A DNA stretch of 64,000 bases from Nannocystis bainbridge (GCF_028368995.1 NZ_JAQNDL010000001.1:4128001-4192000), one strand, 5' to 3'; counted from the stretch's first letter, positions 3-62,620 are shown. The notes: generated from the letters alone by a model not told the origin. A program made the numbers and translations.

Positions 3-992
3 GACCCCCACCACGCGCTCGCCGAGCTGCGCCAGCGTCATCTCCCGGGCGCCCGTCGGGCCCTCGAGGGCTTCGTCGCCGGGCTCGCCGGAGATCTGCG
101 CCCGCTGCTCGCCCGCGCGCTCGAGCACCTGCGTGCCATCCTCGTCGTTCACGGCGAAGTCCGCGTCGAGCTCCCGCGCGACCTCCCGCCCCCCGACCCG
201 CAGGCCCTGCTGTCGCTCGACGGTCGCGGCGACTACCTCGACGTCCTGCCCGCTGCCTGGGACATCGCCAGCCCGGCGCTCGCCGACCTGTTCGATCGGT
301 CATGTCTCGAGGGACATCCTGACGGGGCGTCGATCGAGCAGGCGACCTCGTCCTCCGCCGTCCGCGAGATCGTCCCCGCCGACCCGCAGCGAGCCGCGGT
401 CCTGGTGCGCGAGCTCGACGATCACCTGTTCGCGCTCGGCCTGGCCCCGCTGCGGCGGATCTACCTCGCTGCGGGCGAACGCCTCGGGCTCGGCGCCGAC
501 GTCTTCCTGCTCGCCCCCGACGAGCTGGACCACGCGCTCGCCGGCCGCGACCTGCCTGATCTCGCCGCACGCCGGCACCAGCAGCAGTACTTCGTCGCGC
601 TGCGACCACCCCCGGCGCTTTACGACGGCCGGCCCGTGCCGCTCTCGCCGCGACGGCGGTGGAGCGGGATCGCCGTCGGCCCGCCGGTGCGCGGCCGCGT
701 CGCCCTTCGCAGCGACCTCGCCGACCTGCTCGCCCGCCCGCCCGAGCCCGACGCCGTCGTCGTCTTGCCGGCGCTCACCGCTCAGGCCGCGGTCGCCTTG
801 CGAGCGCTCGGCGTGCGCGCCGTCTGCTGCGAGTACGGCGGCGCGCTCAGCCACGCCGCCTTGATGGCCCGCGAGCTCGGCCTGTCGGCGCTGATCGGCT
901 GCGCCGGCTGCAGCGAGCTCGCCGATGGCAGCACCGTCGAGCTCGACACCCGCGCCGGTCGCCTCCGCCTTGCCCCCAAGGACATGTCCTGA
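3..992 (+). CDS. PEP-utilising enzyme mobile (phospho-His swivel) domain protein, 5'-truncated by the window edge
   Basis: The frame of ORF 405..992 stays open back to base 3. The C-terminus has VCCEYGGALSHAALMARELG..VELD..G, the PEP-utilisers mobile-domain signature. Confidence 0.75.
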   Translation, partial: DPHHALAELRQRHLPGARRALEGFVAGLAGDLRPLLARALEHLRAILVVHGEVRVELPRDLPPPDPQALLSLDGRGDYLDVLPAAWDIASPALADLFDRSCLEGHPDGASIEQATSSSAVREIVPADPQRAAVLVRELDDHLFALGLAPLRRIYLAAGERLGLGADVFLLAPDELDHALAGRDLPDLAARRHQQQYFVALRPPPALYDGRPVPLSPRRRWSGIAVGPPVRGRVALRSDLADLLARPPEPDAVVVLPALTAQAAVALRALGVRAVCCEYGGALSHAALMARELGLSALIGCAGCSELADGSTVELDTRAGRLRLAPKDMS

Positions 993-998
993 AGGACA
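971..998. repeat. Two head-to-tail 14-bp palindromic units over the stop codon of the first CDS
   Basis: tgcccccaaggaca|tgtcctgaaggaca. Confidence 0.75.
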
Positions 999-1036
999 GA
1001 TCGTTTTCGATCGCCCGGGCCGCGGCGCGGCCTACG

Positions 1037-1462
1037 CTAGATCTCGTCTTCCGAGAGGTGCTCTTCGCGGAGCTTCGGCGCCGGCCGCGGCTTCGCGGCG
1101 GCGGGCGACGCGGCGACCGGCTTGGGCGCGGCGGCCTTGCGCTCCGGCACCTCTATGTCGTCCGGGTCCTCGATCAGCGGCGCCGTCGAGAGGTTGACGC
1201 GGGCGCGCAGCTCCTTGCCGACCTTGAAGAATGGCAGGCGCTTCGGCTTCACGTGCACGGACCCGCCGGTGCGCGGGTTTCGGCCCTCGTAGGACTTGTA
1301 CTGCCGCACCGTGAAGCTGCCGAAGCCGCGGATCTCGATGCCCTCGCCGCGGACCATCGCTTCCGTCATGGCCCCGAAGATCGTCCCGACGACCAACTCG
1401 GCCTTGCCCTTGGTCAGCTTCGCAGCTTCGGACACGCGCTCGATGAGTTCGGATTTGGTCAC
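1037..1462 (-). CDS. ihfB: Integration host factor beta / HU-family DNA-binding protein with an Ala/Pro/Lys-rich and acidic C-terminal extension
   Basis: GTG start giving (M)TKSELIERVS...IEIRGFGSF...GRNPRTG..V..KRLPFFKVGKELRARVN, a classic IHF/HU signature. Confidence 0.85.
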   Translation of the reverse strand: MTKSELIERVSEAAKLTKGKAELVVGTIFGAMTEAMVRGEGIEIRGFGSFTVRQYKSYEGRNPRTGGSVHVKPKRLPFFKVGKELRARVNLSTAPLIEDPDDIEVPERKAAAPKPVAASPAAAKPRPAPKLREEHLSEDEI

Positions 1463-1547
1463 GTCGCTGATCTCCGACCGCCGGGGACGATGATGGTAGG
1501 CGGAAAAAACGAGAGATCTCAAGCAGTAAGACGGACCCCTGAGACCG

Positions 1548-7794: not shown

Positions 7795-7831
7795 GACGCA
7801 CCCCCGCCGTCGCTGCGGGCAAAATAACTTC

Positions 7832-7983
7832 AGGACATGCTCTCATGAGCATGTCCTGAAGCGCATGTCATTCGTCAGCCGAACTGAAGCGCCGCGGCCT
7901 TGCAAGGGTCGTCCTGAGCGCGAAGCCTCCGCCTAGTGGGCCTCGACTCGCTACATGTCCCGAATGACATGTCCTGAAGACCC
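7832..7983. repeat. Two clusters of 14-bp palindromic units between convergent genes
   Basis: tgctctcatgagca|tgtcctgaagcgca at 7838-7865 and tgtcccgaatgaca|tgtcctgaagaccc at 7956-7983. Confidence 0.75.
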
Positions 7984-8043
7984 TGCGGCCTCACGTTCGG
8001 AACGACGTCATCCTTCGCCCCGTCCCGCCGGGCGAGGCGAACG

Positions 8044-8343
8044 TCAGCCCTGCCCGTACGCGGCGACCCAGCGCAGGTGCGGCCAGGTGAAGATGCCGTT
8101 GTCGTGCCCGTCGGAGAAGCGGATCCCGAGCGCGTAGGCGCCGACCTCGTGCAGCTCGGCGATCGTCACCCCCGCGGGCGGCTCGTGGAACCGGATGCCC
8201 GGCGTGTGCCCCTGGCAGGTCGCGCACGGGCACCAGCCGCGCAGCAGTCCCGCTGCCAGCCGCGACACCGCGCCGTCCTCCCAGGTGACCTCGAGGACGG
8301 CTTCCTTCACGTGATGGGCGATGTCTACCGGGACCATCGGCAC
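8044..8343 (-). CDS. DUF971 / gamma-butyrobetaine hydroxylase N-terminal-like protein
   Basis: LRGWCPCATC...VG.YAL.I.FSDGHD.GIFTW signature. Confidence 0.88.
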   Translation of the reverse strand: MPMVPVDIAHHVKEAVLEVTWEDGAVSRLAAGLLRGWCPCATCQGHTPGIRFHEPPAGVTIAELHEVGAYALGIRFSDGHDNGIFTWPHLRWVAAYGQG

Positions 8344-10454: not shown

Positions 10455-10681
10455 GGCCCTGCGCGCCGCGATCGCGGCAGCTCTCGAACAGACGGCGCCG
10501 CGCCTCGGAGCCAACGCCCCGCGAACTGCGGTCGCGGCCTCTCTGCGAGAGCCGATCCGGTGCCGAAGTTCCTGTTGTTCACGGTCCCTCGACTTCGAGG
10601 CCCTTTCTACCCACTACCTCGCGCGGAGGTCGCCGCCGTGTTGCGAAGCGGCAGAGGACTCCGAGGCGGAGCGAAAGGACA

Positions 10682-10737
10682 TGCTCGTAAGAACATGCCC
10701 CTTCGAGCATGCCCTTTCGAGCATGCCCTTTCGGCCA
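10682..10737. repeat. Four tandem 14-bp units next to the kinase stop codon
   Basis: tgctcgtaagaaca|tgccccttcgagca|tgccctttcgagca|tgccctttcggcca. Confidence 0.85.
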
Positions 10738-18977: not shown

Positions 18978-19101
18978 GACTCCAAGTTGTAACAGAACGA
19001 AGGGTCGTCGCAAGATCTGTTAGCGCGCGCAACGCGCGCGGAACTGCTCCGACCCTTGTAGAAGCAACGAGCGGCGGCGCCAGCGAGTCGCGGACGCCCG
19101 C

Positions 19102-24211: not shown

Positions 24212-24281
24212 TGTCCCGAAGGGCATGCTCTCCAGAGCATGTCCTTCAGAACATGTTCGATGGAGCATGCCACTCAGGGCA
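24212..24281. repeat. Five tandem 14-bp units filling the gap between convergent genes
   Basis: tgtcccgaagggca|tgctctccagagca|tgtccttcagaaca|tgttcgatggagca|tgccactcagggca. Confidence 0.9.
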
Positions 24282-27887: not shown

Positions 27888-27957
27888 TGCTCGTCAGGAC
27901 ATGTCGCAACGCTCATGCCCGAAGGGCCATGTCCGCGAGGACATGGCCCTTCGCGCG
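27888..27957. repeat. Four to five tandem 14-bp units between convergent genes
   Basis: tgctcgtcaggaca|tgtcgcaacgctca|tgcccgaagggcca|tgtccgcgaggaca|tggcccttcgcgcg. Confidence 0.8.
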
Positions 27958-32307: not shown

Positions 32308-32335
32308 TGTCCCCGGGGACATGCTCCGAAGAGCA
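32308..32335. repeat. Two 14-bp palindromic units at the gene junction
   Basis: tgtccccggggaca|tgctccgaagagca; both have perfectly complementary 5-bp arms. Confidence 0.8.
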
Positions 32336-33283
32336 TGTCGCGGCGGCGCGCTGGTCGTCCTGGCCTGCGGCTGGGCGGCCCTCCGCCTGCAGATGAACGG
32401 CGAGTACAAGGGCGCGACCTGGGCCCAGATCGCCGAGTTCACCGCGCCGCTGCCGTTCGGTCACCGGCCGCTGATGTCGCTGGCGGCCTGGCCGCTGCGG
32501 GCGGCGACGGACTGGCCGCTGGCGCTGGTGTGGGGCGCGCTCGAGGCCGCAGCGGCGCTCGGGCTGTGGCTCGCGCTGCGAGCGGCGCTGCGTCCGCTCG
32601 TGGGTGCCCGTTGGGACATGTTCTTTGCGACATGTTTCTTCGCGCTGCTGGCGTTCCCGCTGCTGCTCAAGCACAAGTGGGCGGTGTTCTACCCGTGGGA
32701 CACGCCGGCGATGGCGTTCACGGCGGCCGGGCTGGCGCTGGTGGCGAGCCGCAGGTTCGCGGCGGCGACCGGGCTGTGCTTCGTGGCGGCGCTGAACCGC
32801 GAGAGCGCGGCGCTGATCCCAGCGGCCGCGCTGGCGCTGCACGTCGGCTTTTCAAGACATGTCCTTCGGGACATCCGAGCAGTGACGGGCCCGGTCCTGG
32901 CGATGACGGCCGCGGTGGTGGCGGCGCGCGCGGCGGTGATGCTGGCGCTGCCCGACAACCTCGGGGCGGCGCTGCACTTCGCCATCGGCAAGAACACGCC
33001 GCGTTGGCTGCACAACCTCGAGTGGCTGGCGGAGCCGGTGCACTGGCTGTGGCTGCCGATGTACTTCGCGCTGCTGCCGGTGGCGTGGGCGCTGCTGTGG
33101 AGGTGGATCTCCGCCGACCACCGCCGCCTCGCGCTGGTCGCCCTGGCGTGGTTCCTCGGCCTGATGCTGGTCGCCAACATCTACGAGCCGCGCGTCTACG
33201 GCGAGCTGCTCGTGCTCCTCTACGTCCCCGTCGCGGCCGCGGCGTGCCGCTGGCTGCGCGCTGATACACTGGGCGCGGCATGA
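32321..33283 (+). CDS. Polytopic membrane protein (possibly GT-C-like)
   Basis: 3' part of ORF 30590..33283, with about 8-9 hydrophobic helices, YPWD, NRES and YEPR motifs, and an ATGA overlap with the next gene. Start uncertain. Confidence 0.65.
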   Translation: MLRRACRGGALVVLACGWAALRLQMNGEYKGATWAQIAEFTAPLPFGHRPLMSLAAWPLRAATDWPLALVWGALEAAAALGLWLALRAALRPLVGARWDMFFATCFFALLAFPLLLKHKWAVFYPWDTPAMAFTAAGLALVASRRFAAATGLCFVAALNRESAALIPAAALALHVGFSRHVLRDIRAVTGPVLAMTAAVVAARAAVMLALPDNLGAALHFAIGKNTPRWLHNLEWLAEPVHWLWLPMYFALLPVAWALLWRWISADHRRLALVALAWFLGLMLVANIYEPRVYGELLVLLYVPVAAAACRWLRADTLGAA

Positions 33284-34113: not shown

Positions 34114-35076
34114 TCAGGACATGTCCTTGAGGACACGTCGCAGGAGGTCCGGCGCGCCGTGGGCGGTGAGGCGGCCCGAGGCGTCGATCTGCAGCTCGAC
34201 GTGATCGCGGCCGCGCCACAGCGCCGGGTCGGCGTGGCGCGGGGTGAGGTGGACGATCTGCTGGTTGGTCGAGCCGATCCACCGGCGGCCCGCGGCGGGT
34301 TCGCGGCGGCGGGCGTCGAAGCGGCCGTCGACGAGGGTGTCGGCGGCGTCGAGCAGGGCGCGCGCCCCGGGCATGGCCTGCAGCTCGGCGTGGGTGCGGC
34401 CGGTGAACACGAGGGTGCCGAGGCCGAGCTCGCGGGCGGCCCGGCACAGCGCGGCGACGGCCTCGGGTTGCTCGCTCGGTTCGCCGCCCAGCACGGTGAG
34501 GCCGGTGATCGCGTGGAGGTCGCGAGCGGCGCGCAGCTCGTCGACGAGCGTGGTGATGGCGAGGGCTTCGCCGCCGTCGCGGGCGAACAGCTCGGGGTTG
34601 CAGCAGCCGGGGCAGCGCAGGGTGCAGCCCTGTACCCAAACGGCGAACCGCAGGCCGGGGCCCTCGGCCTCGGTGCAGGCGACCCTGGCGGCGACCCGGA
34701 GCGTCACCGGCGAGGCGAGCGAGTCCCATGTCCCGACGGGCCTCGCGTTCGCGGCGAGGGCCTGCGGGTCCGTCGCAGAATCACATGTCCCTGCGGACAG
34801 CTTCCTCGCGGTTCGCCGCGGCGCCGTCGCGGAATCACATGTCCCTGCGGACAGCTTCCTCGCGGTTCGCCGCGGCGTCTCGACTTGCCCCGAATCCGTC
34901 GCGGAATCACATGTCCCTGCGGACATGTTTTTCGCTTCGAGCCGCGGCGTCTCGCCGTGAGCCGAGCCCGTCGCCGAATCACATGTCCCTGCGGACATGT
35001 CGCTCGCGTCGGGCCCCGTCGCAGCGGCTCGCTCGCTCGGCTCGACCTGCGCGCGGTCGCCTGGCTTTCCGCTCAT
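34114..35076 (-). CDS. Radical SAM protein, NrdG/organic-radical-activase-like, with a repetitive N-terminal extension
   Basis: EGPG.RFAVWVQGCTLRCPGCCNP (CxxxCxxC), GGEP, DGRFD and GSTNQ. The ATG at 35076 lies 1 nt after the upstream stop. Confidence 0.82.
   Translation of the reverse strand: MSGKPGDRAQVEPSERAAATGPDASDMSAGTCDSATGSAHGETPRLEAKNMSAGTCDSATDSGQVETPRRTARKLSAGTCDSATAPRRTARKLSAGTCDSATDPQALAANARPVGTWDSLASPVTLRVAARVACTEAEGPGLRFAVWVQGCTLRCPGCCNPELFARDGGEALAITTLVDELRAARDLHAITGLTVLGGEPSEQPEAVAALCRAARELGLGTLVFTGRTHAELQAMPGARALLDAADTLVDGRFDARRREPAAGRRWIGSTNQQIVHLTPRHADPALWRGRDHVELQIDASGRLTAHGAPDLLRRVLKDMS
34770..34997. repeat. Four copies of a 30-bp repeat (ccgtcgcggaatcacatgtccctgcggaca) at 54/72/72-bp spacing
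   Basis: The core tgtccctgcggaca lies at 34786, 34840, 34912 and 34984. The intervening sequences resemble one another. Confidence 0.9.
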
Positions 35077-37180: not shown

Positions 37181-37284
37181 CGCGCCGGATCGCCAGGCCG
37201 CGCAACCGCGACGTCGCGCTCCGACGCGTCGTCCTTCGACATGTCCTTCGAGACATGTCAATCGGAGACAAGCCATGACGCGCC
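37156..37284. repeat. 31-bp direct repeat (2 mismatches) duplicating a stop/start gene junction, enclosing 14-bp units
   Basis: catgtcgctcggagacaagccatgacgcgcc at 37156-37186 versus catgtcaatcggagacaagccatgacgcgcc at 37254-37284. Confidence 0.85.
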
Positions 37285-37833: not shown

Positions 37834-37903
37834 TGTCCGTTCAGACCTGTTCTTTCGTACCTTGCGTTTCAGACCTGTCGCAATGCACATGTCCCTGCGA
37901 ACA
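37834..37903. repeat. Five degenerate tandem 14-bp units running into the next start codon
   Basis: tgtccgttcagacc|tgttctttcgtacc|ttgcgtttcagacc|tgtcgcaatgcaca|tgtccctgcgaaca. Confidence 0.75.
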
Positions 37904-41675: not shown

Positions 41676-41717
41676 TGTTCTTTACGGCATGTTGTGAAGG
41701 ACATGTTCCAAAAAACA
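41676..41717. repeat. Three AT-richer 14-bp units in the divergent promoter region
   Basis: tgttctttacggca|tgttgtgaaggaca|tgttccaaaaaaca. Confidence 0.7.
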
Positions 41718-45871: not shown

Positions 45872-46513
45872 TCATGCGGCGGCGCTCCGCACGGCGGCCA
45901 GCAGCGTCGTCGCGCGCTCGCCGATGGCTGTGAGATCTCCGGCTTGTACGAGCGCCGGGGGGAACAGCGGCGTGGTGAAGCCCACCCCTGCCGCGCCGGC
46001 TTGCAGCACCGGAGCGGCGTTCGCGGCGTCGACCCCGTTGGTCGGCACCAGGTTCAGGGCCGGCATCGGCCCCAGCACCGCGCGCACGAACGCGGCGACG
46101 TCGCCGGGCGCGGGGAACAACTTTTGCGCCGCCGCCCCGGCCGTGTGCGCGCGCCACAGCTCCGTCGGCGTGAAGCAGCCGGGCACCGCCGCCGCCCCGA
46201 GCGCGCGCGCGCAGGCCACCACGCGCTCGTCCAGCACCGGCGACACCAGGAACCGGGCCCCAGCCCGGACCGCCTCGCCGGCGGTCTCAGGGTCCATCAC
46301 CGTGCCCGCGCCGACCGTCAGGCGGGCGTCACGGGCGAACTCGGCGACGAGGCTCATCGCCCCGGGCGTCGTCACCGTGAACTCGAGCACCCGGAAGCCG
46401 GCCTCGACGGCCGCCCACATCGCCGCGGCGGCGTGGTCGCGGCTGGTCGCGCGCATGATGGCGACCGCGCGGTGCTGGGCGAGCGCCGCGGTGAAGGCTG
46501 TCTCCGAGGACAT
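45872..46513 (-). CDS. eda: KDPG/KHG aldolase
   Basis: AI.R, LEFT.TTP, VGAGTV, GA.FLVSP, PG..TPTE, KLFPA and PT.GV motifs. Confidence 0.88.
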   Translation of the reverse strand: MSSETAFTAALAQHRAVAIMRATSRDHAAAAMWAAVEAGFRVLEFTVTTPGAMSLVAEFARDARLTVGAGTVMDPETAGEAVRAGARFLVSPVLDERVVACARALGAAAVPGCFTPTELWRAHTAGAAAQKLFPAPGDVAAFVRAVLGPMPALNLVPTNGVDAANAAPVLQAGAAGVGFTTPLFPPALVQAGDLTAIGERATTLLAAVRSAAA

Positions 46514-46728
46514 GCTGGGGCCATCGTAGGCCAACGGCCGCGCGGGCCGCAAGTTCGCCGCCGGACCGGGGCCGGGGCCGACCCGAGGCGTCCGCGGAGG
46601 CCGCCTCGGCGGCAGCGGCGGTCACGCAGGGTCTGCGGGCTCGCGTTCCGGGCGATCGGCACATTCGGGTTCGCCGACCAGCGGCGCGCCCGGGCTGCGG
46701 GTACCGAGCGGGCGGCGATCGTCGCACA

Positions 46729-46928
46729 TGGCCTTTTGTTCATGTCCGGGACGCGTCGTCGCGGGCGTCTGCTCCCCGCGCTGCTCGAGGCCGGCGGCGC
46801 CTCGCTCGACATGTCCCCACGGACATGTCCATGCCGCGCGAGTGACATGTCCCTTCGGACAGCCGACCTCCTGTGAGTCCCGGCATGTCCCGGAGGACAG
46901 GTTCATCCCGAGGCTGTCCCGAAGGACC
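46729..46928. repeat. Dense cluster of 14-bp palindromic units
   Basis: tgtccccacggaca (46812), tgtcccttcggaca (46848), tgtcccggaggaca (46886), tgtcccgaaggacc (46915). Confidence 0.85.
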
Positions 46929-48793: not shown

Positions 48794-49130
48794 TCAGACC
48801 GTGCTGGGGATCACAGGACCGGCTGCGCACCCCCCTGCGCACGCGCGCAGGCGGTCGCGCTCCGCCCGACCCCGACGCAACGGCCTGTGATCTGTCCCCG
48901 AGGACAGATGAACCATGGATCGGCGAGCGCGCTCGCGACCGCCGCGCAGGGGCCGCCCGCGTCGCCAGGACCGAGAGGCGGTCGTCCCGCCTCGAAGATC
49001 GCGCCGACGAGGAGCAGCCGCGAGCGCAGAGGCGCCGGTCGGCCCTCGCCTTCGAGATGTCTCTTCGGACATGTCCTCCGGGACTGCTTGACGGCCTCGT
49101 CGCCGCCCGCGTAGAACCGGCGCCCGCGGC

Positions 49131-50294
49131 ATGAAGCTCGTCGACGTGACCGAGTTCTACTCCCAGCGCGGCGGCGGGGTGCGCACGCACCTGACGGAGA
49201 AGGCCGCCGCGGCCGCGCGTCGCGGGCACGAGCACCTGGTCTTCGCGCCTGGTCCGCGCCACGCCGCCGACCCGGGCGTGCGCTACATCCCCGGCCCCTC
49301 GCTGCCGTACGACCCGACCTATCACCTGCTGTGGCGGATCGGCGCGGCCCGGCGGATGCTGCGGGCCGAGCGGCCCGACGTGCTCGAGATCCACTCGCCG
49401 TACGTCGCCGCGATCGCGGCGCTGGGGCTGCGGCCGGGCGAGTTCGGCGTGCGCACCTTCGTCTGGCACTCCGACTTCATCGACACCTACCTGCGCGGCG
49501 GGCTCGAGCGGCGCCTCGCGCTGCTGTTCCGCGGCCGCGCCGCGCGGGCCGCAGATCGCGTCGTCGAGCCGCTGTGGGCCCACGTGCGCCGGATCGCCGA
49601 CGCCTGCGCCATGACCGTCGTCGGCTCGCGCTGGCAGCGGCACAAGCTCGAGCAGCACGGCGTCGCCCGCGTCGAGCACATCCCGTTCGGCATCGAGCCC
49701 GGGCGCTTCGCCCCCGAGCGGCGCAGCGAGGCCCGCCGCCAGGAGCTGCTGGCCGGGCGCGCGGGGCCGCTGATCGTCGCCATCGGCAGGTTCGCCGTCG
49801 AGAAGCGCTGGGACGTGGTCGTCGACGCCTACGCCCGGCTCGCCGAGCGCCACCCCGGGGCGGTGCTGGCGGTGTTCGGCGACGGTCCCGAGAGACATGT
49901 CTTCAAGGACAGGCTCGGCGAGCGCGCCGACGTCCGCGTCCTCGGGTTCGAGCGCGACCGCGACCGCCTGGCGGTGACGCTCGCCAGCGGCGACCTGCTG
50001 CTCCACGGCTGCCCGTTCGAGACCTTCGGCCTCGGGGTCGCCGAGGCGATCGCCAGCGGCCTGCCGGTGGTGGTGCCCGACGCCGGCGGCGCGTCCGAGC
50101 AGGCGCCCCCCGAGAGCGCGGCGCAGTACTCCGCCGGAGACGTGGACGCCTGCGTGGCCGCCGCGGAGGCGCTGCTGGCCGTCGACCCGGCCGAGCTGCG
50201 GGCCCGCGCCGCCACGGCGGCCCGCCGGGTCCCCAGCGTCGTCGATCACTTCGACGCCCTGTTCGGCCGCTACCGCGAGCTGCTCGCGCGTTGA
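49131..50294 (+). CDS. GT4 glycosyltransferase (alpha-1,6-mannosyltransferase-like)
   Basis: DVTEFYS..GGGVRT, GRF..EK, GDGPER and ETFGL..AEA.ASGLPVV motifs. Confidence 0.88.
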   Translation: MKLVDVTEFYSQRGGGVRTHLTEKAAAAARRGHEHLVFAPGPRHAADPGVRYIPGPSLPYDPTYHLLWRIGAARRMLRAERPDVLEIHSPYVAAIAALGLRPGEFGVRTFVWHSDFIDTYLRGGLERRLALLFRGRAARAADRVVEPLWAHVRRIADACAMTVVGSRWQRHKLEQHGVARVEHIPFGIEPGRFAPERRSEARRQELLAGRAGPLIVAIGRFAVEKRWDVVVDAYARLAERHPGAVLAVFGDGPERHVFKDRLGERADVRVLGFERDRDRLAVTLASGDLLLHGCPFETFGLGVAEAIASGLPVVVPDAGGASEQAPPESAAQYSAGDVDACVAAAEALLAVDPAELRARAATAARRVPSVVDHFDALFGRYRELLAR

Positions 50295-51085: not shown

Positions 51086-52075
51086 ATGGCCCGGATCAGC
51101 CTCGTCGTGCACGGCCGCGGTCGCGGTCACGCCAGCCGGGCCGTCGCCTGCGCCCACGCCCTGCGCGACGCCGGTCACGCCCTCCACGTGTTCGCCGGCG
51201 GCGACGCGGAACATGCCCTCAAGGACATGTCCGAAGTGACATCCATCCCGATCGTCCGGCCCGGCCTCGGCGCCGCGACGGGGTGGTTGCGGCGGCTGGC
51301 GAGCGACGCCGAGCGGTTCGCCGCCGCGGCGCCGGAGTGCATCGTCAGCGACGGCGATCAGCCCAGCCTCGTGGTCGCGCGCCGGCGCCGGATCGGCAGC
51401 GTCGCCGTCGATCACGGCCTCGCCCTCACCCACGGCCGCCTGCCGATCCGCCCGCCCGCGTGGATGCGGCTGTACGAGCGGCTCAACAACGCCCCGCTGG
51501 CGCTGGGCGGCCGCCTCGTCGCCGTCCATTTCCTGCCGTTCGTGGCCACCGATTCGCGCGTCGCCGTCGCCCGGCCCGACCTGCGCGACGACCTGCGCGG
51601 GCCCGTCACGCGCGAGGGCTTCTTGCTGGCCTACTTCCGCGACGACAACGGCCGCGACGCCCTCGCCCTCGCCCTCGCCGCTGGCGCCGATATCGTCTGC
51701 TTCGGCGAGCGCGACCCGCAGCTGCCCGGCTTGCGGTTTCATCGCTCGGACCGCGCCGGCTTCGCCGACCACCTGCGGCGCTGCGACGGCGTCATCACCT
51801 CGGCCGGCAGCAACGTGCTGGCCGAGTGCGTCATGCTGCGCAAGCCGGCCCTGGCGCTGCACCACCGCGGCGACGCCGAGCAGGCCCTCAACGCCCGGCT
51901 CGCCGAGCACGCCGGCGTCGCGCTCGGGCGCAGCTTCGAGGACCTGCGGGCGCGGGACGTCGGTGAGTTTTTGACCCGGGTGCGCGGCGGTGAGTTCGCC
52001 GCGCCCGACCTCATGACCGCCATGCCGCCGGTGTCCGAGGTGGTCGTCAGCGCCGTCGCGGCGCTCCTGGTATAA
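51086..52075 (+). CDS. GT-B glycosyltransferase (MJ1255/GT28-C-like)
   Basis: V.G.GRGHASR, IVSD, ITSAG...L.E....KP and EQ.LNA motifs. Confidence 0.8.
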   Translation: MARISLVVHGRGRGHASRAVACAHALRDAGHALHVFAGGDAEHALKDMSEVTSIPIVRPGLGAATGWLRRLASDAERFAAAAPECIVSDGDQPSLVVARRRRIGSVAVDHGLALTHGRLPIRPPAWMRLYERLNNAPLALGGRLVAVHFLPFVATDSRVAVARPDLRDDLRGPVTREGFLLAYFRDDNGRDALALALAAGADIVCFGERDPQLPGLRFHRSDRAGFADHLRRCDGVITSAGSNVLAECVMLRKPALALHHRGDAEQALNARLAEHAGVALGRSFEDLRARDVGEFLTRVRGGEFAAPDLMTAMPPVSEVVVSAVAALLV

Positions 52076-56098: not shown

Positions 56099-56265
56099 TG
56101 TCCCGAAGGACAGCTTATTCGATGATTGGCTGTCTCGCGGGACAGTCAGCTTCTCCCGAGCGACGCCCCTGCTGTCCTGAGGGACATGTGAGGTCCAGAA
56201 CCCTCCCTGAGATGTCCCGAGAGACAGCCCTCCGCGGAGCGGCGCCCCTGCTGTCCTGAACGACA
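56099..56265. repeat. Five spaced 14-bp palindromic units plus a 23-bp direct repeat
   Basis: Units at 56099, 56131, 56173, 56213 and 56252; gagcgRcgcccctgctgtcctga at 56158-56180 and 56237-56259. Confidence 0.85.
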
Positions 56266-56445: not shown

Positions 56446-57852
56446 GTGACGAGCACCGAGCCCAGCACTCGCGCCACGCCGCCGCCGTGGCTGCAGCGTG
56501 TGGCCATCCTCAACGACTACGCGCGGGTCCCCTACGCCAACGGCTCCTCGTTCGCCTCGCAGATGCTGCGGCGCGAGTTCGCCGCGCGCGGGCAGGAGGT
56601 CACCGTCATCGGCCCGAACGACCCGCACGCGCGGCCCGACCAGCTGCCGCCGCGGCGGATCTTGCTGCCCTCGCTGCCGCTGCGCAATCACCCGGGGGTG
56701 TACATGCCGTTCCCCTCGGCGCGCAGCTTCCGGGCCGCGGCCGCGGCCAAATTCGACTTCGTGCTCAGCCAGAGCAACCACGATCTGTGCGACCTCGGCG
56801 TGTGGCTGCGGTTCAAGCACGACGTGCCGCTGCTGTGCGTCAACACCCTGCACCTGCCGAGCGTCTACGGCGTGGTCCTGTCCGATCGCATGCGCAAGAA
56901 CCGGACCATCAACGGCCTGTTCCAGGACCGCTTGATGCCGTGGCTCGAGCATCACTCCGCCGAGGTCTACAACCTCGGCGACGGCCTCATCGTCCTCGCC
57001 GAGGGCCTCGTCGACTACTGGCGGGAGCGCGGCGTGACCGTGCCGATCCACGTGATCCCGCGGGCCGTCGCCCCGCACATCTTCGACGCCCCGGTCGGCG
57101 ACGACCCGTTCCCCGCCAGCGCGCCCGCCGGTCAGCGGCTCCTCGTGGTCTGTCGTCACTCGCGCGAGAAGGGCGTCGAGCGGCTGCTCAAGCTGTTCGC
57201 CCGCCACGTCGCCCCCGCGTGCCCGCAGGCGACGCTGACCCTCGTCGGCGACGGCCCCGACCACGACGCCTTCCGCGCCCTCGCCGAGCGCCTCGGACTC
57301 GGGGGCCGCGCGCAGTTCGTCGGCGAGGTGCCCGTCACCGAGGTCCCGAACTACTACCGGCACGCCGACCTGTTCGTCTACACATCGCTGTCCGAGACCT
57401 ACGGCCAGGTCGTCAGCGAGGCGATGTGGTGCGGGCTCGCGGCGGTGGCGTTCGCCGACGGCATGGGCGTGTCGCAGCAGATCCGCGACGGCCGCGACGG
57501 CTGGCTCGTCGAGCCCGGGCCCGACGCCGACGCCGCCGACGCCGAGTTCGGCGCCCGCGTGGTCGCCCTGCTGCGCGACGAGGCTGCCCTTCGGGGCATG
57601 TCCGAAGAGGCAGCCCGGCACGCCCGCGAGCGCGCCGACCCGGACCGCAGCATCGCCCGCTACTACGCCGCCTTCGAGGCCGCCCGCGAGCACTGCCGCA
57701 GCACCGCCGCCGAGCGCCGGACCCAGGGCCTGAACACGCCGCGGCTGATCTCCCGCTGGCTCGCCGTCCACGGGGCCGTCGTCGGCCTCAGCGCCCTGCG
57801 CCCGCCCGCCCTGCTCAACCGCAACGGCGGCGAGCAGCCGGCGTGGAGCTAG
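56446..57852 (+). CDS. GT4 glycosyltransferase (diacylglycerol glycosyltransferase-like)
   Basis: ND......NG, R...EK, VGDGPD, AD.FVY.S.SETYG.V..EAM..G motifs. Start uncertain (56377 or 56446). Confidence 0.85.
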   Translation: MTSTEPSTRATPPPWLQRVAILNDYARVPYANGSSFASQMLRREFAARGQEVTVIGPNDPHARPDQLPPRRILLPSLPLRNHPGVYMPFPSARSFRAAAAAKFDFVLSQSNHDLCDLGVWLRFKHDVPLLCVNTLHLPSVYGVVLSDRMRKNRTINGLFQDRLMPWLEHHSAEVYNLGDGLIVLAEGLVDYWRERGVTVPIHVIPRAVAPHIFDAPVGDDPFPASAPAGQRLLVVCRHSREKGVERLLKLFARHVAPACPQATLTLVGDGPDHDAFRALAERLGLGGRAQFVGEVPVTEVPNYYRHADLFVYTSLSETYGQVVSEAMWCGLAAVAFADGMGVSQQIRDGRDGWLVEPGPDADAADAEFGARVVALLRDEAALRGMSEEAARHARERADPDRSIARYYAAFEAAREHCRSTAAERRTQGLNTPRLISRWLAVHGAVVGLSALRPPALLNRNGGEQPAWS

Positions 57853-57897
57853 CTCGCGCGGCCGGCCGACGCGCCCGCGCGGCGAACCTCGAGGACA

Positions 57898-57953
57898 TGT
57901 TCATTAGGGCATGATCCCGGGGACATGTCCGATTCGACATGTCCCCGGAGCCC
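57898..57953. repeat. Four tandem 14-bp units between convergent genes
   Basis: tgttcattagggca|tgatcccggggaca|tgtccgattcgaca|tgtccccggagccc. Confidence 0.82.
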
Positions 57954-57958
57954 GCCGC

Positions 57959-59305
57959 TCAGCCCTGCGCGTGGGCCAGAGCGATGTCGAGGTAGGGCTG
58001 GATCAGCCCTAGCACGTGCCCGCGGGCGCGGACACGGCGGAGGTTGCCGTAGTGCCCGGCGATCGCCCGGTCGACGAAGATGATCTCGCGCGGCGGCTGG
58101 AACGACGCCATGCGCTTGAGGGCGGCCGGGATCATGCGGATCACGTCGTCGTGCAGGGTCGCGCGGGCGTAGTCGAACGGCTCGCCGGTGAGGAACGGCA
58201 GCGCCAGGATGTCGCGCCACTGCTTGTAAAAGGCCGGCTCGACCGGCGGCCCGTCGGGGTTGCGCACCCCGAGCGCGCGCAGGGCCTCGTCGACGCCGTC
58301 CCAGTCCTCGGCGATCCCGCAGCGGATCGTCCTGGCGTAGGCCGCGGCGATCTCGGGCGGGACCTGCTTCACGCAGCCGAAGTCGTAGAGCACGACGTCG
58401 CCGTTCGGGCGGAACGCCAGGTTGCCGGGGTTGGGATCGGCGTGGATCAGCCGGTGCTCGAACAGCTGGGCCGCCAGCGCGCCGAACAGGTTCTCGCCGA
58501 TCCGGTCGCGCACCGCCTGCGAGTAGCCGCGGGCGTCGAGCTCCTCGATGCGGTCCCCTGGCTCGAAGGTCAGGGTCAGCACCCGCTGCGACGAGCGCTC
58601 GCCGACCACCTCGGGCACGATCACGTGGTCGTCGCCGCGGTGGATCTCGCCGAAGCGGCGGACGTTGTCGGCCTCGTTGCAGTAGTCGAGCTCCTCGACC
58701 AGGCGGGCGCGGATCTCGGCGAACACATCGTCCAGGCTCTGCTGCTTGACGTCGGCGAGGCCGGCCGCGCGCTTGACGAAGCCGCCGGCCTTGAGGGCGA
58801 ACTTGAGCTGCGCCAGGTCGGAGTCGACGGCGCCGTCGACGCCCGGGTACTGCACCTTGACCACGACCTCGCGGCCGTCGTCGGTGGTCGCGCGGTGGAC
58901 CTGGCCGATCGAGGCCGCCGCGAACGGCTCGACCTCGAAGCGCCTGAACAGCACCTCCGGCGCCGCGCCGAGCTCGCTCTCGATCTGGCGGGCGATCACC
59001 GCGAAGTCGACCGGCGGCGCCTCCCGCTGCAGCGAGCGCAGCGCCTCGGACAGCTCCTTCGGCAACAGGTCACCGGCGATCGACGCCATCTGCCCGACCT
59101 TCATCACCGCGCCCTTGAGCTCGCCGAGGGTCCGGGCGATGCGCCCGCCGTTGAGCTCGTGGGCGGCGTTGCGGTCGCGCTCGGCGTCCTCGTCCGACTG
59201 GAACATCCCCTTGATCCGCGTCTTCGCGTAGCTGCCCGCGACCTGTGCGGTCATGCCGGCGAGCTTGAAGAAGCGCCTCCCCTTGGTGACCGGGCCCTCG
59301 TTCAT
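57959..59305 (-). CDS. ABC1/AarF/UbiB-family atypical kinase
   Basis: LKGAVMKVGQ, PFAAASIGQVH, VVVKVQYPG, EELDY..EA, HADPNPGN and DFGC motifs. Confidence 0.92.
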   Translation of the reverse strand: MNEGPVTKGRRFFKLAGMTAQVAGSYAKTRIKGMFQSDEDAERDRNAAHELNGGRIARTLGELKGAVMKVGQMASIAGDLLPKELSEALRSLQREAPPVDFAVIARQIESELGAAPEVLFRRFEVEPFAAASIGQVHRATTDDGREVVVKVQYPGVDGAVDSDLAQLKFALKAGGFVKRAAGLADVKQQSLDDVFAEIRARLVEELDYCNEADNVRRFGEIHRGDDHVIVPEVVGERSSQRVLTLTFEPGDRIEELDARGYSQAVRDRIGENLFGALAAQLFEHRLIHADPNPGNLAFRPNGDVVLYDFGCVKQVPPEIAAAYARTIRCGIAEDWDGVDEALRALGVRNPDGPPVEPAFYKQWRDILALPFLTGEPFDYARATLHDDVIRMIPAALKRMASFQPPREIIFVDRAIAGHYGNLRRVRARGHVLGLIQPYLDIALAHAQG

Positions 59306-59444
59306 CGCCGCTCGCTCCGTCCTGACTCTGCCCGCCCGCCCGGGCTCGCGCAAGCCCACGCGCCCGCGCGTCGCAGCTCCTCGGCCGCGAGGCCCCGTCG
59401 CCGCCGGAGCGTGACTCGCCCGCGACCGGCGGAGCTGACGCAGC

Positions 59445-59508
59445 TGTCCTTCGGGACATGCTCGACGCCAGCGCGTCACATGTCCCGTGGGACATGTTCC
59501 TACGGGCA
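59445..59508. repeat. 14-bp units in the divergent intergenic region
   Basis: tgtccttcgggaca (59445); tgtcccgtgggaca|tgttcctacgggca (59481-59508). Confidence 0.8.
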
Positions 59509-59764
59509 CCTCCGGGCCCGGCCCCGCGAGCTCGCGGCCAGGGAGTGATTACCCTCGTCCCGGTGTGCGCTGGCTCGCGGCCGCGACCCGGGGCGGCCCG
59601 CGACGCGGCGCCTGGAACGCTGCGGGGATCGGTCGGTGGCGGCGAAACCGGGCGGGACCGCCGCCGGGGCCCGGGCCCGGGGCCTCGCGGGGCCGCCACG
59701 GGCCTTGCGAGCGGCCCGCGCCGCCCGGCCCCGCGAGCCTGTAGGATGAGCGACGGAGCCGACC

Positions 59765-60775: not shown

Positions 60776-60981
60776 GCGCCGCGTTGTCTGCCGCGGATCA
60801 AGCGCCCGTGGCAAGCTCCTCCTCGAGGTCGACGGGGGACGAACTGGGTGGGTGACTTCATCGCCCCGGGGCCGGTGCTGGCCTTACGGGCTTGAAGTCT
60901 TGGTGACCTCGGGCCCAGGCGGGGACCTACGCGGCGCAGGTCGTCGCGTGGGTCCTCGCCTCCTTTTGCTATCATCCGCGC

Positions 60982-62040
60982 GTGCGCACGCGCCCGCGAG
61001 TCTGCGTCCTTCACGTCGGCGGCACCATCGGCATGGTCCGCACCGAGACCGGTTACGCGCCGCAGCCGGGCTTCCTCGGCGAGTACATGGCCGCGATGCC
61101 CGAGCTGCAGCGCTCGGAGCTGCCGGCCTTCGACGTCATCTCGCTCGAGCCGCTGCTCGACTCGGCCGACATGGCGCCCGACGACTGGGTCCGCATCGCC
61201 GAGGCCATCGCCGCTCGCTACGCCGACTACACCGGCTTCGTCGTGGTCCACGGCACCGACACGATGGCCTACACCGCCTCGGCGCTGAGCTTCTTGCTGC
61301 CCGGCCTGGCCAAGCCCGTCATCCTCACCGGCTCGCAGCTCAGCCTCACCCACGTCCGCAGCGACGGCCGCGAGCACATCATCACCGCCCTCTTGCTCGC
61401 CGGCACCTGCGAGATCCCCGAAGTGTGCATCTACTTCGCCTCGCGCCTCCTCCGCGGCAACCGGGCGCAGAAGGTCCACAACCTCGACTTCGTCGCCTTC
61501 GACAGCGGCAACCTGCCCCCGCTCGCCACCCTCGGCGTCGGCATCGAGGTCGCCCGTCACCTGGTCCGAAAGCCAGGTTCTGCCGGCGCCGCCGGCCTGA
61601 CGATGATCCCCCTCGTGCGCCGGCCCGAGGTCGCCGCCGTGCGCCTGTTCCCTGGCATCGGCGCGGCGATGATGGCCAAGCTGCTCGAGCCCCCGCTCGA
61701 GGGCCTCGTGCTCGAGACCTACGGGGTCGGCAACGCGCCGAGCCGCGACCAGGCGCTGCTCTCGACGATCGCCCGCGCCGCCGCGCCGCCGCGCGAGGCG
61801 GTGATCGTCAACTGCTCGCAGTGCCACGGCGGCTCGGTCCGCCAGACCACCTACAGCACCGGCGCCGCGCTGGCCCGCGCCGGCGTGCTGTCCGGCTTCG
61901 ACATGACCCCCGAGGCGGCCCTCACCAAGCTCTACTGCCTGCTCGCCGCCGGCCTGCCGCCGGCGACCGTCCGCTCGCGCATGCAGCAAGACCTCGCCGG
62001 CGAGCTGACGCCGGACCCCGCGAGCGGCTCCGTCTCGTAA
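60982..62040 (+). CDS. ansA: Type I L-asparaginase
   Basis: GGTIGM, LDS.DM, HGTDTMAYTAS.LSF, KPVILTGSQ, RGNR, ETYG.GN and DMT.EAA.TKL motifs. Confidence 0.92.
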   Translation: MRTRPRVCVLHVGGTIGMVRTETGYAPQPGFLGEYMAAMPELQRSELPAFDVISLEPLLDSADMAPDDWVRIAEAIAARYADYTGFVVVHGTDTMAYTASALSFLLPGLAKPVILTGSQLSLTHVRSDGREHIITALLLAGTCEIPEVCIYFASRLLRGNRAQKVHNLDFVAFDSGNLPPLATLGVGIEVARHLVRKPGSAGAAGLTMIPLVRRPEVAAVRLFPGIGAAMMAKLLEPPLEGLVLETYGVGNAPSRDQALLSTIARAAAPPREAVIVNCSQCHGGSVRQTTYSTGAALARAGVLSGFDMTPEAALTKLYCLLAAGLPPATVRSRMQQDLAGELTPDPASGSVS

Positions 62041-62050
62041 AGGTGCGACG

Positions 62051-62620
62051 ATGCGCGATCTGTTCCTGAGCCTGTCCGTTTGCACATGTCTTTTCGCACA
62101 TGTCTCCGGGTGCAGCTCGCCACCGGCCGCCCCGGCCGCCCCGGCGAAGCCCGCCGCCAAGCCCGCCGCGTCCGCCGCTGACGCGCCGGTCGGCTACGAC
62201 CTGCGGCGCCTGCGGCCGCGCGACGAGGAGACGCTCGCCGCCATGTTCGAGCGCCTGCGCGCCCAGGCGCTGGCCGACGGCAAGCGCGTGGCCGTGCTGT
62301 TCAGCGCCGACTGGTGCGAGCCCTGCCGCGAGCTCGAGCAGGAGCTCGGCAACCGCCACCCGGCCGCGGAGATCGGCGATGTCCGGTTCCTCGAGCTCAA
62401 GGAGGAGGACTGGAGCGCGGCGGCCCGGATGGACGAGTTCAACGAGCTGCGCCGCCGCTGGGTCGGTCAGACCGGCTCGTACCCGCTGCTGATGCTGCTC
62501 GACGCCGAGGGCAATTCGAGCGAGGAGATGAAGCAGGCGATCGAGCGCCTCGAGGCTGCGAAGATCGAGCCGACGCTGGCGCACTGGCTGGCCGATACGC
62601 GGCCGAAGAGCGCGACCTAG
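62051..62620 (+). CDS. Exported thioredoxin-like (CxxC) protein
   Basis: Signal/lipoprotein-like N-terminus, FSADWCEPC and YP...LLD.EG. Confidence 0.75.
   Translation: MRDLFLSLSVCTCLFAHVSGCSSPPAAPAAPAKPAAKPAASAADAPVGYDLRRLRPRDEETLAAMFERLRAQALADGKRVAVLFSADWCEPCRELEQELGNRHPAAEIGDVRFLELKEEDWSAAARMDEFNELRRRWVGQTGSYPLLMLLDAEGNSSEEMKQAIERLEAAKIEPTLAHWLADTRPKSAT

Follow-up and report, generated by a model that had tools for sequence, protein, structure and literature searches.

Palindromic units in the window

The window, meaning the whole 64-kb stretch of DNA analysed here, comes from Nannocystis, a soil myxobacterial genus in which a 14-bp palindromic unit occurs in thousands of copies. Its units lie both between genes and within open reading frames (ORFs). 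The loci are listed below by window coordinates, with no strand assigned to any of them.

289..316: two units within a long ORF
971..998: two units overlapping the stop codon (992) of the upstream ORF
7838..7865: two units in the convergent gap 7794-8044, with more degenerate units at 7956-7983
10668..10737: five-unit array that fills the gap between two convergent genes, one for a metallo-beta-lactamase-fold protein and one for a Ser/Thr kinase
24212..24281: five-unit array running from stop codon to stop codon of convergent genes
27888..27943: four-unit array in a convergent gap
32308..32335: two units that begin 2 nt past the stop codon of a gene for an aldehyde dehydrogenase and are conserved in all five species
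32605..32873: two units at 32605 and one at 32860, in the tandem gap shared with the 32308 units
34122..34135: single unit downstream of the stop at 34047
34786..34997: four identical units TGTCCCTGCGGACA, one per copy of a 54/72-bp tandem repeat (34770-35009)
37242..37255: single unit in the tandem gap 37180-37275
37834..37903: degenerate units (37834-37875) and two units (37876-37903), 3' of the stop at 37817
41676..41717: three units at the 5' edge of ORF 39169-41799, whose start is probably over-extended
46499..46512: lone unit close to the 5' edge of ORF 45872-46552
46812..46899: three single units spaced 36-38 bp in a tandem gap
48893..49085: isolated unit (48893) and two units (49058) in a divergent gap
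49884..49911: two in-frame units within a GT4 glycosyltransferase gene; codons GGT, AGA, CAT and AGG
51214..51241: two units in the 5' portion of ORF 51086-52075
56099..56226: four isolated copies, none with a CATG junction; the leading one begins 3 nt past the stop at 56096
57585..57612: two units within a second glycosyltransferase gene
57884..57953: five-unit array filling the convergent gap 57852-57959
59445..59508: one plus two units at the 5' edge of ORF 57959-59509
62073..62114: three degenerate in-register units scoring 9, 8 and 7 of 10

Several of these loci can be followed between species. The site of the 10668..10737 array carries three to six units in four other species, and that of 24212..24281, whose last unit includes the stop codon of the minus-strand gene, carries four or five units in five other species. 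Within 27888..27943, units 3 and 4 together with the next half-unit form a palindrome with a 15-bp stem and a GNRA-type centre, which is kept in five species. The first unit of 57585..57612 varies strongly among species, with the reading frame kept.

An earlier note on this DNA described the unit as TGYYY-N4-RRRCA and listed loci at which it recurs. The recurrence is real and highly non-random, with 45 matches to the pattern in the window, against 1.96 ± 1.52 expected from 100 dinucleotide shuffles, the largest of which gave 7. Of its 31 loci, 21 have an exact match at the start given for them; the other ten (7956, 9436, 14839, 19291, 22504, 37834, 41676, 49884, 54762 and 62073) begin with units scoring 7-9 of 10 arm positions. 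At nine of these ten the next in-register unit also scores 7-9, and at 9436 it scores 5. Array calling returned 35 arrays with 64 units in the window. Searching Rfam at the gathering score gave no matches in the 64-kb window, and no published description of the motif was found in the literature.

Geometry, abundance and taxonomic range

Genome-wide variant counts refine the consensus to TGnCC-N4-GGnCA. The palindrome first described stands, but its restriction to Y/R at positions 3 and 12 falls away, since all four bases are tolerated there. The most constrained positions are G2 and C13, with single variants numbering only 29 and 21, and C4/C5 and G10/G11 are likewise constrained. Arm and spacer lengths are invariant (5+4+5 = 14 bp): a count of TGTCC-Nk-GGACA for k from 0 to 10 gives 1,987 at k = 4 and no more than 16 at any other value. 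These genome-wide counts contain no 16-bp form of the unit and no loops of 3 or 5 nt between the arms. Units join with zero gap only: among the spacings of GGACA-Nk-TGTCC, k = 0 accounts for 956 occurrences and no other k for more than 19. Isolated single arms are barely enriched. Composition is dyad-symmetric, centre included. The central 4 nt, earlier thought to vary freely, are indeed diverse (189 loop types among 1,987 perfect-arm units) but not fully free: A is rare at position 6 and T at position 9, positions 7-8 are correlated (mutual information, MI, 0.305), and YCGR centres are enriched.

Across the 11-Mb genome, 4,399 arrays holding 8,752 units after de-duplication account for 1.1% of the sequence; the control for array calling, reversed sequence, gave 207 arrays. 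Start-to-start distances among the 5,521 genome-wide pattern matches peak at 14 (811), 28 (271), 42 (128) and 56 (53), which confirms the 14-bp periodicity. Runs of up to five units describe the window correctly, but elsewhere in the genome arrays reach nine. Neighbouring units differ, as had been noticed, with a common 4-nt centre in only 140 of 4,353 adjacent pairs; some arrays consist simply of tandem copies, such as the eight near-identical units on C3 at 1085845. Isolated copies lacking the CATG junction are also real, as 1,760 of the 5,521 units lack a junction at both ends, and isolated RRRCATGYYY junctions without outer arms are frequent too (1,143 of 4,032). Units in long arrays are more degenerate than singles, and strict units make up 53% of pattern-matching singles versus 13% of pattern-matching units in arrays of at least five. 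No 250-kb bin of the five contigs is free of units, and both skew arms carry them.

The motif is narrowly distributed. All 11 Nannocystis genomes carry it, with 114-2,090 strict units per genome, while two sister genera hold 87 and 161 and the other 28 genera searched hold at most 8. A search of 185,579 species for the strict dimer outside the genus returned none except an unrelated Mesorhizobium palindrome and three single hits, which makes the motif a simple genus marker.

Location and conservation of the arrays

The arrays are concentrated at gene 3' ends, most of all where two genes converge. An array is present in 54% of convergent gaps (704/1,309), 24% of tandem gaps and 15% of divergent gaps (169/1,094), classes that contain errors because the gene map is a crude GC3-based ORF call. 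Among gaps of 60-100 nt, none of 120 divergent gaps holds an array, compared with 59% of 171 convergent ones. Unit density is about 13 times greater in convergent gaps than in genes (4.37 vs 0.34 units per kb), and arrays often begin at stop codons, with offset peaks at 0, +5 and +6. The earlier observation that the longest arrays occupy gaps between convergent genes agrees with these counts. Beside the 54 short divergent gaps with arrays, only one DNA-binding neighbour, an ArsR-type protein, could be recognised by eye.

Genes themselves also carry arrays: 1,812 of the 4,399 lie within ORF calls, 605 of these with coding-like flanks. Strict units in ORF interiors number 557 in 6.0 Mb, about 33 times expectation, given 9-21 in five synonymous-codon shuffles. 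The in-gene pair at 49884-49911 shows no indel relative to six homologues from six other genera. This comparison indicates that in-gene units arose by substitution, without insertion.

Arrays keep their positions in five species while the centres of their units diverge. In orthologous units, TG/CA is 97-100% identical, the inner arms 76-98% and the centres 58-91%; third codon positions of the flanking genes are 88.5-94.3% identical, and the centres diverge faster than these. Near-invariant TG/CA beside centres that outpace third codon positions requires selection or continuing drive. Conservation is highest at the base of the potential stem and lowest beside the loop, and the comparison points to purifying selection on unit sequence rather than on pairing. 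Unit number at a given locus varies among species. Between two species at 95.6% identity, only 2 of 44 anchored loci differ in length by whole multiples of 14 bp, and in neither case has a unit been cleanly gained.

Candidate functions of the arrays

The units may be operator-like arrays at 3' ends for a putative dyad-symmetric (dimeric) DNA-binding protein of the Nannocystis lineage, a reading to which we assign a probability of about 0.4. Half-sites degenerate almost independently: the change is at C3 alone in 381 units, at G12 alone in 314 and at both in 146 (1,987 strict). Mutual information between the arms of a unit is 0.003-0.011 bits, and arms are perfect in 43% of pattern matches against some 36% expected from marginal frequencies. 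As would be expected of cooperatively bound operators, the dyad units keep a fixed register while their half-sites degenerate independently. Each monomer would read one TGnCC half-site, zero-gap abutment would turn an array into a continuous row of alternating half-sites, and the protein may coat this row cooperatively. Such coating would explain why more degeneracy is tolerated in arrayed than in single units, and cooperative binding predicts the fall in strict units from singles to long arrays. From these statistics and the 3'-end location we infer protein binding, its cooperativity and its effect, the most likely job being to block or insulate transcription in both directions where transcription units end, or to serve there as a topological or nucleoid anchor. 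Of the two explanations in the earlier note, cooperative dimer sites fit the sequence statistics better than hairpins or mobile elements in any form do, and the addition of 14-bp units has no support, given the 2 of 44 loci without a clean gain and the in-gene units without an indel. In a narrower version, which we regard as distinctly unlikely, the putative dyad protein would polymerise on the arrays and, genome-wide, halt RNA polymerase arriving from either side or insulate against it, a mode of termination or insulation comparable to TTF-I, Reb1 or mTERF and not known to have been described in bacteria.

Some observations count against the operator reading. Compensated doubles are slightly in excess, about 1-4 times independence, and the sense strand is weakly favoured (55:45; mean -0.85 kcal/mol, p = 0.03), so that some constraint on pairing may exist. 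Arrayed units may be more degenerate because they are older, not because binding is cooperative. A binding-site model alone does not account for the origin of some 4,400 arrays in one lineage. To our knowledge, operator arrays lie in promoters, never at 3' ends.

REP-like hairpins in RNA or single-stranded DNA, acting as bidirectional terminators without a U-tract or as barriers to 3' exonucleases, would suit the strong 3'-end bias and the starts at or near stop codons, yet we think them unlikely. On either strand, a unit has a predicted RNA folding energy of about -7 kcal/mol, and 20 kb of the window hold 9 canonical hairpin-plus-T terminators, close to the background of 4.6 ± 2.1. Long perfect palindromes occur in 38 of 450 three-unit arrays versus 7 in the control, including the conserved one with the GNRA-type centre, and the sense strand slightly prefers T.G over C.A in tandem gaps (999 v 818). 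That wobble asymmetry is nevertheless absent inside genes (T.G 279 v C.A 282), and of 607 arrays, 307 have the more stable fold on the sense strand and 293 on the antisense. Mismatching single-arm variants exceed compensated doubles 2.5- to 10-fold, even in the middle of the 5-bp stem; arms pair fully in only 12.6% of units in arrays of at least four; and the 3- and 5-nt loops that hairpins would tolerate do not occur. The conservation gradient, highest at the stem base, also runs against pairing. No T-rich tail follows the units, positions +1 to +6 after single units being no more T-rich than a symmetric G-S-T extension accounts for, and some 600 arrays lie within genes, where terminators would harm.

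A selfish or neutral repeat, spread by a DNA-level process (14-bp slippage on the 10-bp junction, short-patch gene conversion or an end-recognising enzyme) and best tolerated at 3' ends, would account for the narrow range and huge copy number. The TG...CA ends resemble transposon termini, plain tandem copies exist (C3 1085845; the 54/72-bp repeat), identical adjacent loops slightly exceed the reverse-complement control (140 v 89 of 4,436), and unit number at a given locus differs between species. Its standing is doubtful all the same: a Y1 transposase was not found in any of the 11 genomes, nor was an element with extended inverted ends beginning with TGTCC, the 44 loci show no clean unit gain or loss, TG/CA is conserved while centres outrun third codon positions, in-gene units arose without insertion, and 189 loop types among 1,987 perfect-arm units are too many for the units to be copies of one master element. 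Molecular drive of the uptake-sequence type, by preferential uptake and recombination of palindrome-carrying DNA, would fit a genus-specific excess of thousands of copies, some written into coding sequence by substitution at a cost in codon usage. We consider it very improbable: uptake sequences are spread fairly evenly, whereas density here differs about 13-fold between convergent gaps and genes, and single arms are scarcely enriched alone. We know of no uptake sequence with a phase-locked array counterpart. Equally remote is the idea that the CATG junction is the key, as clusters of methylation sites read by a methylation-sensing protein. CATG is moderately over-represented (39,940 vs 32,145 expected) and, together with TG/CA in general, makes up the most conserved positions, but the 1,760 junction-free units still keep TG and CA, C4/C5 and G10/G11 are constrained as well, and loose junctions hold only about a tenth of CATG sites (4,032/39,940).

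About 1% of an 11-Mb genome consists of one 14-bp word apparently under purifying selection, found at more than half of convergent gene ends and imposed even on coding sequence. Its statistics misfit the usual explanations for intergenic palindromes, namely hairpins, RAYT-mobilised REPs and MITEs. If a protein reads the arrays, it would be a new, abundant component of myxobacterial chromatin or termination, and the arrays would provide ready natural bidirectional insulator parts for a natural-product genus. If none does, it must be asked what produces and preserves so strict a 14-bp register when the centres are free.

Comparison with known systems

Like REP/BIME elements, the units are short extragenic palindromes in thousands of copies, lineage-specific, biased towards 3' ends and convergent gaps and sometimes clustered, their extragenic placement being qualified by the arrays in ORF calls. 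Unlike them, the Nannocystis unit is only 14 bp long, keeps an exact 14-bp register with differing centres, has no GTAG-type 5' tag, and has arms that do not co-vary as a stem (MI at most 0.011 bits; singles 2.5-10 times doubles). REP/BIME and REPINs with RAYT transposases (see PMC3116915) served as the comparison system; neither compensatory stems nor a RAYT gene was found here, the Y1/IS200-like family (PF01797) matching in 0 of 11 Nannocystis genomes (completeness 64-91%) and in 6 of 14 control genomes. CdbA, a ribbon-helix-helix nucleoid protein of Myxococcus xanthus, has a GC-rich, moderately specific site of repeats separated by 4 bp, with 8,917 sites predicted by HMM and 569 peaks, according to the sections consulted of PMC7156744. 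The 4-bp separation and the thousands of myxobacterial copies are shared, whereas the CdbA motif is a direct repeat and the Nannocystis unit an inverted one; those sections state no 3'-end bias for CdbA peaks (PMC7156744).

Other classes match less well. Intrinsic terminators, with a GC-rich hairpin and a T/U tract, differ in that units make up 2 of 9 terminator-like hits in 20 kb and have no T-rich tail. As micro- or minisatellites the arrays have too few true tandem copies, a centre being shared by 140 of 4,353 adjacent units. For MITE or IS-derived elements, no pair of 24-nt inverted ends starting with TGTCC and 0.6-4 kb apart was found except units and large inverted duplications (21 candidates), and in-gene units lack indels. 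DUS/USS sequences spread evenly, and a 13-fold difference separates convergent gaps from genes here. The earlier note's list of non-matches (parS, matS, SlmA/Noc, HIP1, uptake sequences, REP/BIME) agrees with the tests made of its members; against parS, Noc NBS, SlmA SBS and matS, which are 12-16-bp palindromes restricted to an ori, ter or non-ter domain, the units differ in their spacing fixed at 14 bp and their presence in all 250-kb bins and both skew arms. Read as a CRISPR array, the repeat would be the 10-bp junction and the 'spacer' 4 bp, whereas CRISPR systems have 24- to 47-bp repeats, 26- to 72-bp spacers and cas genes.

The closest likenesses in form are to protein-binding sites. At MetJ met-boxes, omega-repressor heptads and BldC direct repeats, small dimeric repressors bind cooperatively to operators in tandem, and like the Nannocystis arrays these sites combine short symmetric or heptad units head-to-tail in exact register, in variable number and with degenerate members. 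Those arrays, however, lie in few promoters and regulate initiation, whereas Nannocystis has some 4,400 arrays at 3' ends, nearly absent from short divergent promoter gaps. Among 14-bp operators of helix-turn-helix dimers, phage 434 operators and LacI/GalR-family or cre boxes TGnnAnCGnTnnCA share the 14-bp palindrome, conserved outer TG...CA, a little-contacted variable centre and central CG among the preferences; the Nannocystis unit differs in its inner half-site CC/GG (4-5, 10-11), a copy number two orders higher and spacerless arrays. TTF-I Sal boxes, Reb1 and mTERF are eukaryotic or organellar protein-roadblock terminators, and we know of no bacterial genome-wide equivalent. They belong to another domain of life and their sequences are unrelated, but they too are repeated sequence-specific protein sites (putative in Nannocystis) 3' of transcription units, and by this analogy a roadblock of the same kind may be how the Nannocystis arrays act.

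Abundance, geometry and range of the unit

The earlier note described 14-bp palindromes of the loose pattern TGYYY-N4-RRRCA (strict form TGTCC-N4-GGACA) that abut head-to-tail in arrays, each junction reading RRRCATGYYY. The loose pattern occurs 45 times in the window versus 1.96 ± 1.52 in 100 dinucleotide-preserving shuffles, and 5,521 times in the genome (11.05 Mb, 71.5% G+C, five contigs). Genome-wide start-to-start distances peak at 14 (811), 28 (271), 42 (128) and 56 (53) bp, confirming the proposed enrichment and register. Units are present at all 31 loci that the note had named, with an exact match at the given start in 21; at the remaining 10 the first unit scores 7–9 of 10, and the next in-register unit scores 7–9 at nine of them and 5 at 9436.

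Arrays were called by stepping from seeds by 14 bp as long as at least 7 of 10 arm positions (1–5 and 10–14) matched, and the results depend on this threshold. After removal of 81 nested duplicates, 4,399 arrays with 8,752 units remain, or 1.11% of the genome; the reversed sequence yields 207 arrays, 202 of them single units. The size distribution is non-monotonic: 2,430 arrays have one unit, 916 two, 428 three and 175 four, against 252 with five and 152 with six, followed by a steep drop to 36, 8 and 2 arrays with seven, eight and nine units, an apparent preferred length of 70–84 bp. The list before de-duplication, which differs by about 2%, underlies the base frequencies and MI, short-gap occupancy, stop offsets, tandem-gap distances, genome-bin spread, flank and palindrome tests, loop consensus, folding, T.G versus C.A counts, deep-genic flanks, neighbours of short divergent gaps and strict fraction by array size. 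Among tetranucleotides, CTAG is strongly depleted genome-wide (1,509 versus 7,649 expected from trinucleotides), and CATG, TCGA and AGCT are over-represented.

All one-letter variants of TGTCC-N4-GGACA were counted free of seed bias, relative to the 1,987 strict units.

Single variants by mirrored position pair
G2 and C13: 29 and 21
T1 and A14: 227 and 205
C4 and G11: 205 and 293
C5 and G10: 633 and 756
Positions 3 and 12: 946 and 943, each of the three alternative bases being common

These counts define the unit as TGnCC-N4-GGnCA, which has 4,525 copies versus 183 in the control. Its geometry is rigid: converging arms number 1,987 at a 4-nt gap versus at most 16 for all other gap lengths in the range 0–10, diverging arms number 956 at zero gap versus at most 19 elsewhere, and direct arms are found at the 14-bp period only. 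The claim that the central 4 nt (positions 6–9) vary freely holds as to diversity (the strict units show 189 distinct centres), but not as to composition, which is non-random. Position 6 is seldom A, position 9 is seldom T, positions 7 and 8 are correlated (MI 0.305), and the four YCGR centres account for 324 of the 1,987 units. Mirror symmetry of base frequencies spans the entire unit.

The repeat is concentrated in one genus. The strict two-unit pattern is found in the window's genome and 9 of 10 other Nannocystis genomes, and in none of 30 other genera sampled. A scan of 185,579 species, with one genome each, returned only Nannocystis, Mesorhizobium and three single records. The Mesorhizobium matches were rejected as instances of the Nannocystis repeat, as all represent one unrelated, perfectly palindromic sequence of about 48 bp (C-rich arm, TGTCCTGCCGGACATGTCCGGCAGGACA, G-rich arm). 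This palindrome is common to at least 14 Mesorhizobium species, with two copies in one locus, and is a separate repeat family that contains the dimer pattern by chance. Strict single units number 114–2,090 per Nannocystis genome (controls 1–6), 87 and 161 in two sister genera (controls 10 and 1), where all six units inspected are single, and at most 8 in the remaining 28 genera.

Placement relative to genes

Gene positions were taken from long ORFs whose third codon positions are rich in G+C; this map is approximate, with over-extended starts and some genes missed.

Array occupancy and unit density by gene context
Convergent gaps: array in 704 of 1,309 (54%), 4.37 units per kb
Tandem gaps: array in 794 of 3,263 (24%), 1.85 units per kb
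Divergent gaps: array in 169 of 1,094 (15%), 0.72 units per kb
ORFs: 0.34 units per kb

Short gaps of 60–100 nt show the largest contrast: arrays occupy 59% of 171 convergent gaps versus none of 120 divergent ones. Within tandem gaps, the array lies a median of 86 nt from the upstream stop versus 251 nt from the downstream start. Offsets from stop codon to first unit peak at 0 (74 genes), +5 (99) and +6 (70), and at offset 0 the unit opens with the stop codon itself, TGA. On the chromosomal scale, mapping density against ori and ter as the earlier note had proposed placed units in all 250-kb bins of every contig and on each of the two GC-skew arms. Density ranges over a factor of 2 to 3, with no sign across the five contigs of a domain limited to ori or ter.

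Units are also written into coding sequence. ORF interiors (5,093 ORFs, 6.0 Mb) contain 1,212 loose and 557 strict units, versus 140–162 and 9–21 in five synonymous-codon shuffles, and for 605 of 1,131 deep-genic arrays the sequence on either side shows, in one and the same frame, third-position G+C resembling that of coding DNA. Two sites in the window illustrate this.

49884–49911: unit pair within a GT4 glycosyltransferase gene, with no indel relative to homologues of six other genera
57585–57598: first of two units within a glycosyltransferase gene, 6–8 of 14 letters differing between species

Because a 14-bp insertion shifts the frame, in-gene units arose by substitution. The pair at 49884–49911 uses GGT, AGA, CAT and AGG, all rare codons in high-G+C genomes, and is identical in three species. 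The unit at 57585–57598 reads TGCCCTTCGGGGCA, TGCTCTAAAAAACA or TGCTTTGAAGAGCA across species, keeping its reading frame and TG...CA ends; in one species its codons are unusually A/T-rich for the genome.

Change across species and local repeats

Synteny with four other species, at about 89% identity, extends over the entire window, and in the array-bearing gaps compared in detail the relatives have arrays in the same position. Unit number and sequence at these shared loci vary far more than the flanking genes. Among gaplessly aligned units (177 and 34–43 unit comparisons), TG/CA positions are 97–100% identical, inner arms 76–98% and centres 58–91%, versus 88.5–94.3% at third codon positions of nearby ORFs; these values are biased to alignable units, 8–24 units per species pair being unaligned. 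A further 200 kb of the closest species pair (95.6% identity) provides 38 units with no change at 152 TG/CA sites, versus changes at about 7% of inner-arm positions, about 11% of centre positions and 6% of flanking positions.

The 200 kb contain 55 array loci, 11 lacking usable anchors. Among the 44 compared, 29 are of equal length, 13 carry indels of other kinds, and at 2 the lengths differ by some multiple of 14 bp; no clean unit gain was found among the 44, these two included. In this comparison (genomes G007 and G005), short, very A/T-rich patches, such as runs like TTTTTTTATAGAAAT, adjoin some arrays (example A positions 19733, 103901 and 145661), the genome being 71% G+C.

Other repeats and variable stretches also occur in the window.

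34770–35009: 54/72-bp tandem repeat, 2–2.6 copies, with the identical unit TGTCCCTGCGGACA in each copy
19376–19671 and 19070–19110: 15-bp tandem repeat, 13.9 copies of CGCGGTCTTCTTCGC, within an ORF, and an adjoining variable stretch
23100–23440: gap upstream of a TonB_C-like gene, holding 200–500 bp of unrelated sequence in each of four relatives between conserved flanks

The presence of TGTCCCTGCGGACA in each copy indicates that units can also multiply as passengers of larger duplications. Beside the 15-bp repeat lies a stretch whose place is taken in the four relatives by degenerate repeats of their own, 150–1,000 bp long; the repeat protein or region is hypervariable and has no relation to the 14-bp units.

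Candidate readings and known systems

The reading we prefer, at a probability of about 0.4, is that the units are putative double-stranded DNA sites recognized by a dyad-symmetric protein. It draws on the independence of the half-sites, the free middle arm position, the rigid spacing at both interfaces, the mirror-symmetric composition, purifying selection on TG/CA and the copies written into genes. An array would then offer such a protein an uninterrupted row of alternating half-sites.

Unit pairing in RNA, with the arrays serving as hairpin terminators or stabilizers, appears unlikely as a general explanation. In its favour, 38 of 450 three-unit arrays form long palindromes versus 7 in the control, and the one at 27916–27953 is retained in five species. 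There, units 3–4 and the next half-unit form a perfect palindrome whose 15-bp stem encloses GCGA (GAAA in one species), which makes it a promising candidate bidirectional hairpin terminator. However, five tests argue against selection on pairing. Compensated doubles are outnumbered by mismatching singles (C3 alone 381, G12 alone 314, double 146) and exceed independence by about 1- to 4-fold only. Sense-strand T.G and C.A counts are 999 versus 818 in tandem gaps and 279 versus 282 inside genes. Folding is stronger on the sense strand in 307 of 607 arrays and on the antisense strand in 293, with −0.85 kcal/mol as the mean difference (p = 0.03). Centres are exclusively N4, whereas hairpins would tolerate 3- or 5-nt loops, and flank complementarity ends at ±1. 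Two extended structures were rejected: variable outer stems on isolated units reach ±1 only (0.53 versus 0.46 expected), with none from ±2 to ±10, and whole-array palindromy (loop i against loop n+1−i) holds for a subset of three-unit arrays but not for n = 2, 4, 5 or 6. No Rfam family matches the window, and hairpins followed by a T tail, as in terminators, occur at close to the background rate (9 versus 4.6 ± 2.1 in 20 kb). RNA records matching the window are metagenome or metatranscriptome contigs only, covering at most 0.13 of sampled words and none from this or a close strain; those aligned on 23001–33000 originate mostly from relatives. Two RNA-library contigs bridge the convergent gap 27872–27961 with 163 other letters. 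Because RNA ends are not visible in contigs, these matches were given no weight.

That the units are a selfish or conversion-driven repeat is similarly improbable. A few plain tandem duplications of units exist, but neighbouring units generally differ, as the earlier note observed, with identical centres in only 140 of 4,353 adjacent pairs. No Y1 transposase was found in any of the 11 Nannocystis genomes, including the window's own (64–91% complete). IS elements with TGTCC-type ends were rejected, as no extended inverted ends built on TGTCC were found, and so was a five-unit master element, with no positional loop consensus in 255 five-unit or 146 six-unit arrays. Uptake-type drive and methylation at CATG each take a small share of the probability.

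For the dyad-symmetric protein reading, the strict share among pattern-matching units, 53% of single units versus 13% in arrays of at least five, fits cooperative occupancy of long arrays, and fits their greater age as well. The location of the arrays argues that, if bound, they act at transcription-unit ends. Their function may be that of a bidirectional barrier or insulator, which we favour, or alternatively a topological or nucleoid role. An autoregulated binding protein beside promoter-side arrays was sought and rejected: among the small neighbours of 54 array-holding short divergent gaps nothing recurred, and one DNA-binding protein, ArsR-like, was recognized by eye.

A literature search over the main text of papers found no description of a Nannocystis or myxobacterial repeat of this kind; PMC5217627 contains the words TGTCC and GGACA but concerns other genomes. 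The motif of Myxococcus xanthus CdbA is reported as a GC-rich direct repeat whose copies stand 4 bp apart (PMC7156744), in contrast to the inverted repeat of the Nannocystis unit. On this difference in repeat orientation, CdbA stays a lead only as a reader of the motif. REP/BIME elements likewise are palindromes restricted to a lineage and placed between genes at 3′ ends, but the hallmarks that define REP elements, so far as tested, were not found here. In architecture the nearest counterparts are arrays of cooperatively bound operators, for instance MetJ boxes, omega heptads and BldC repeats, together with 14-bp TG...CA operators such as those of phage 434 and the LacI/cre family.
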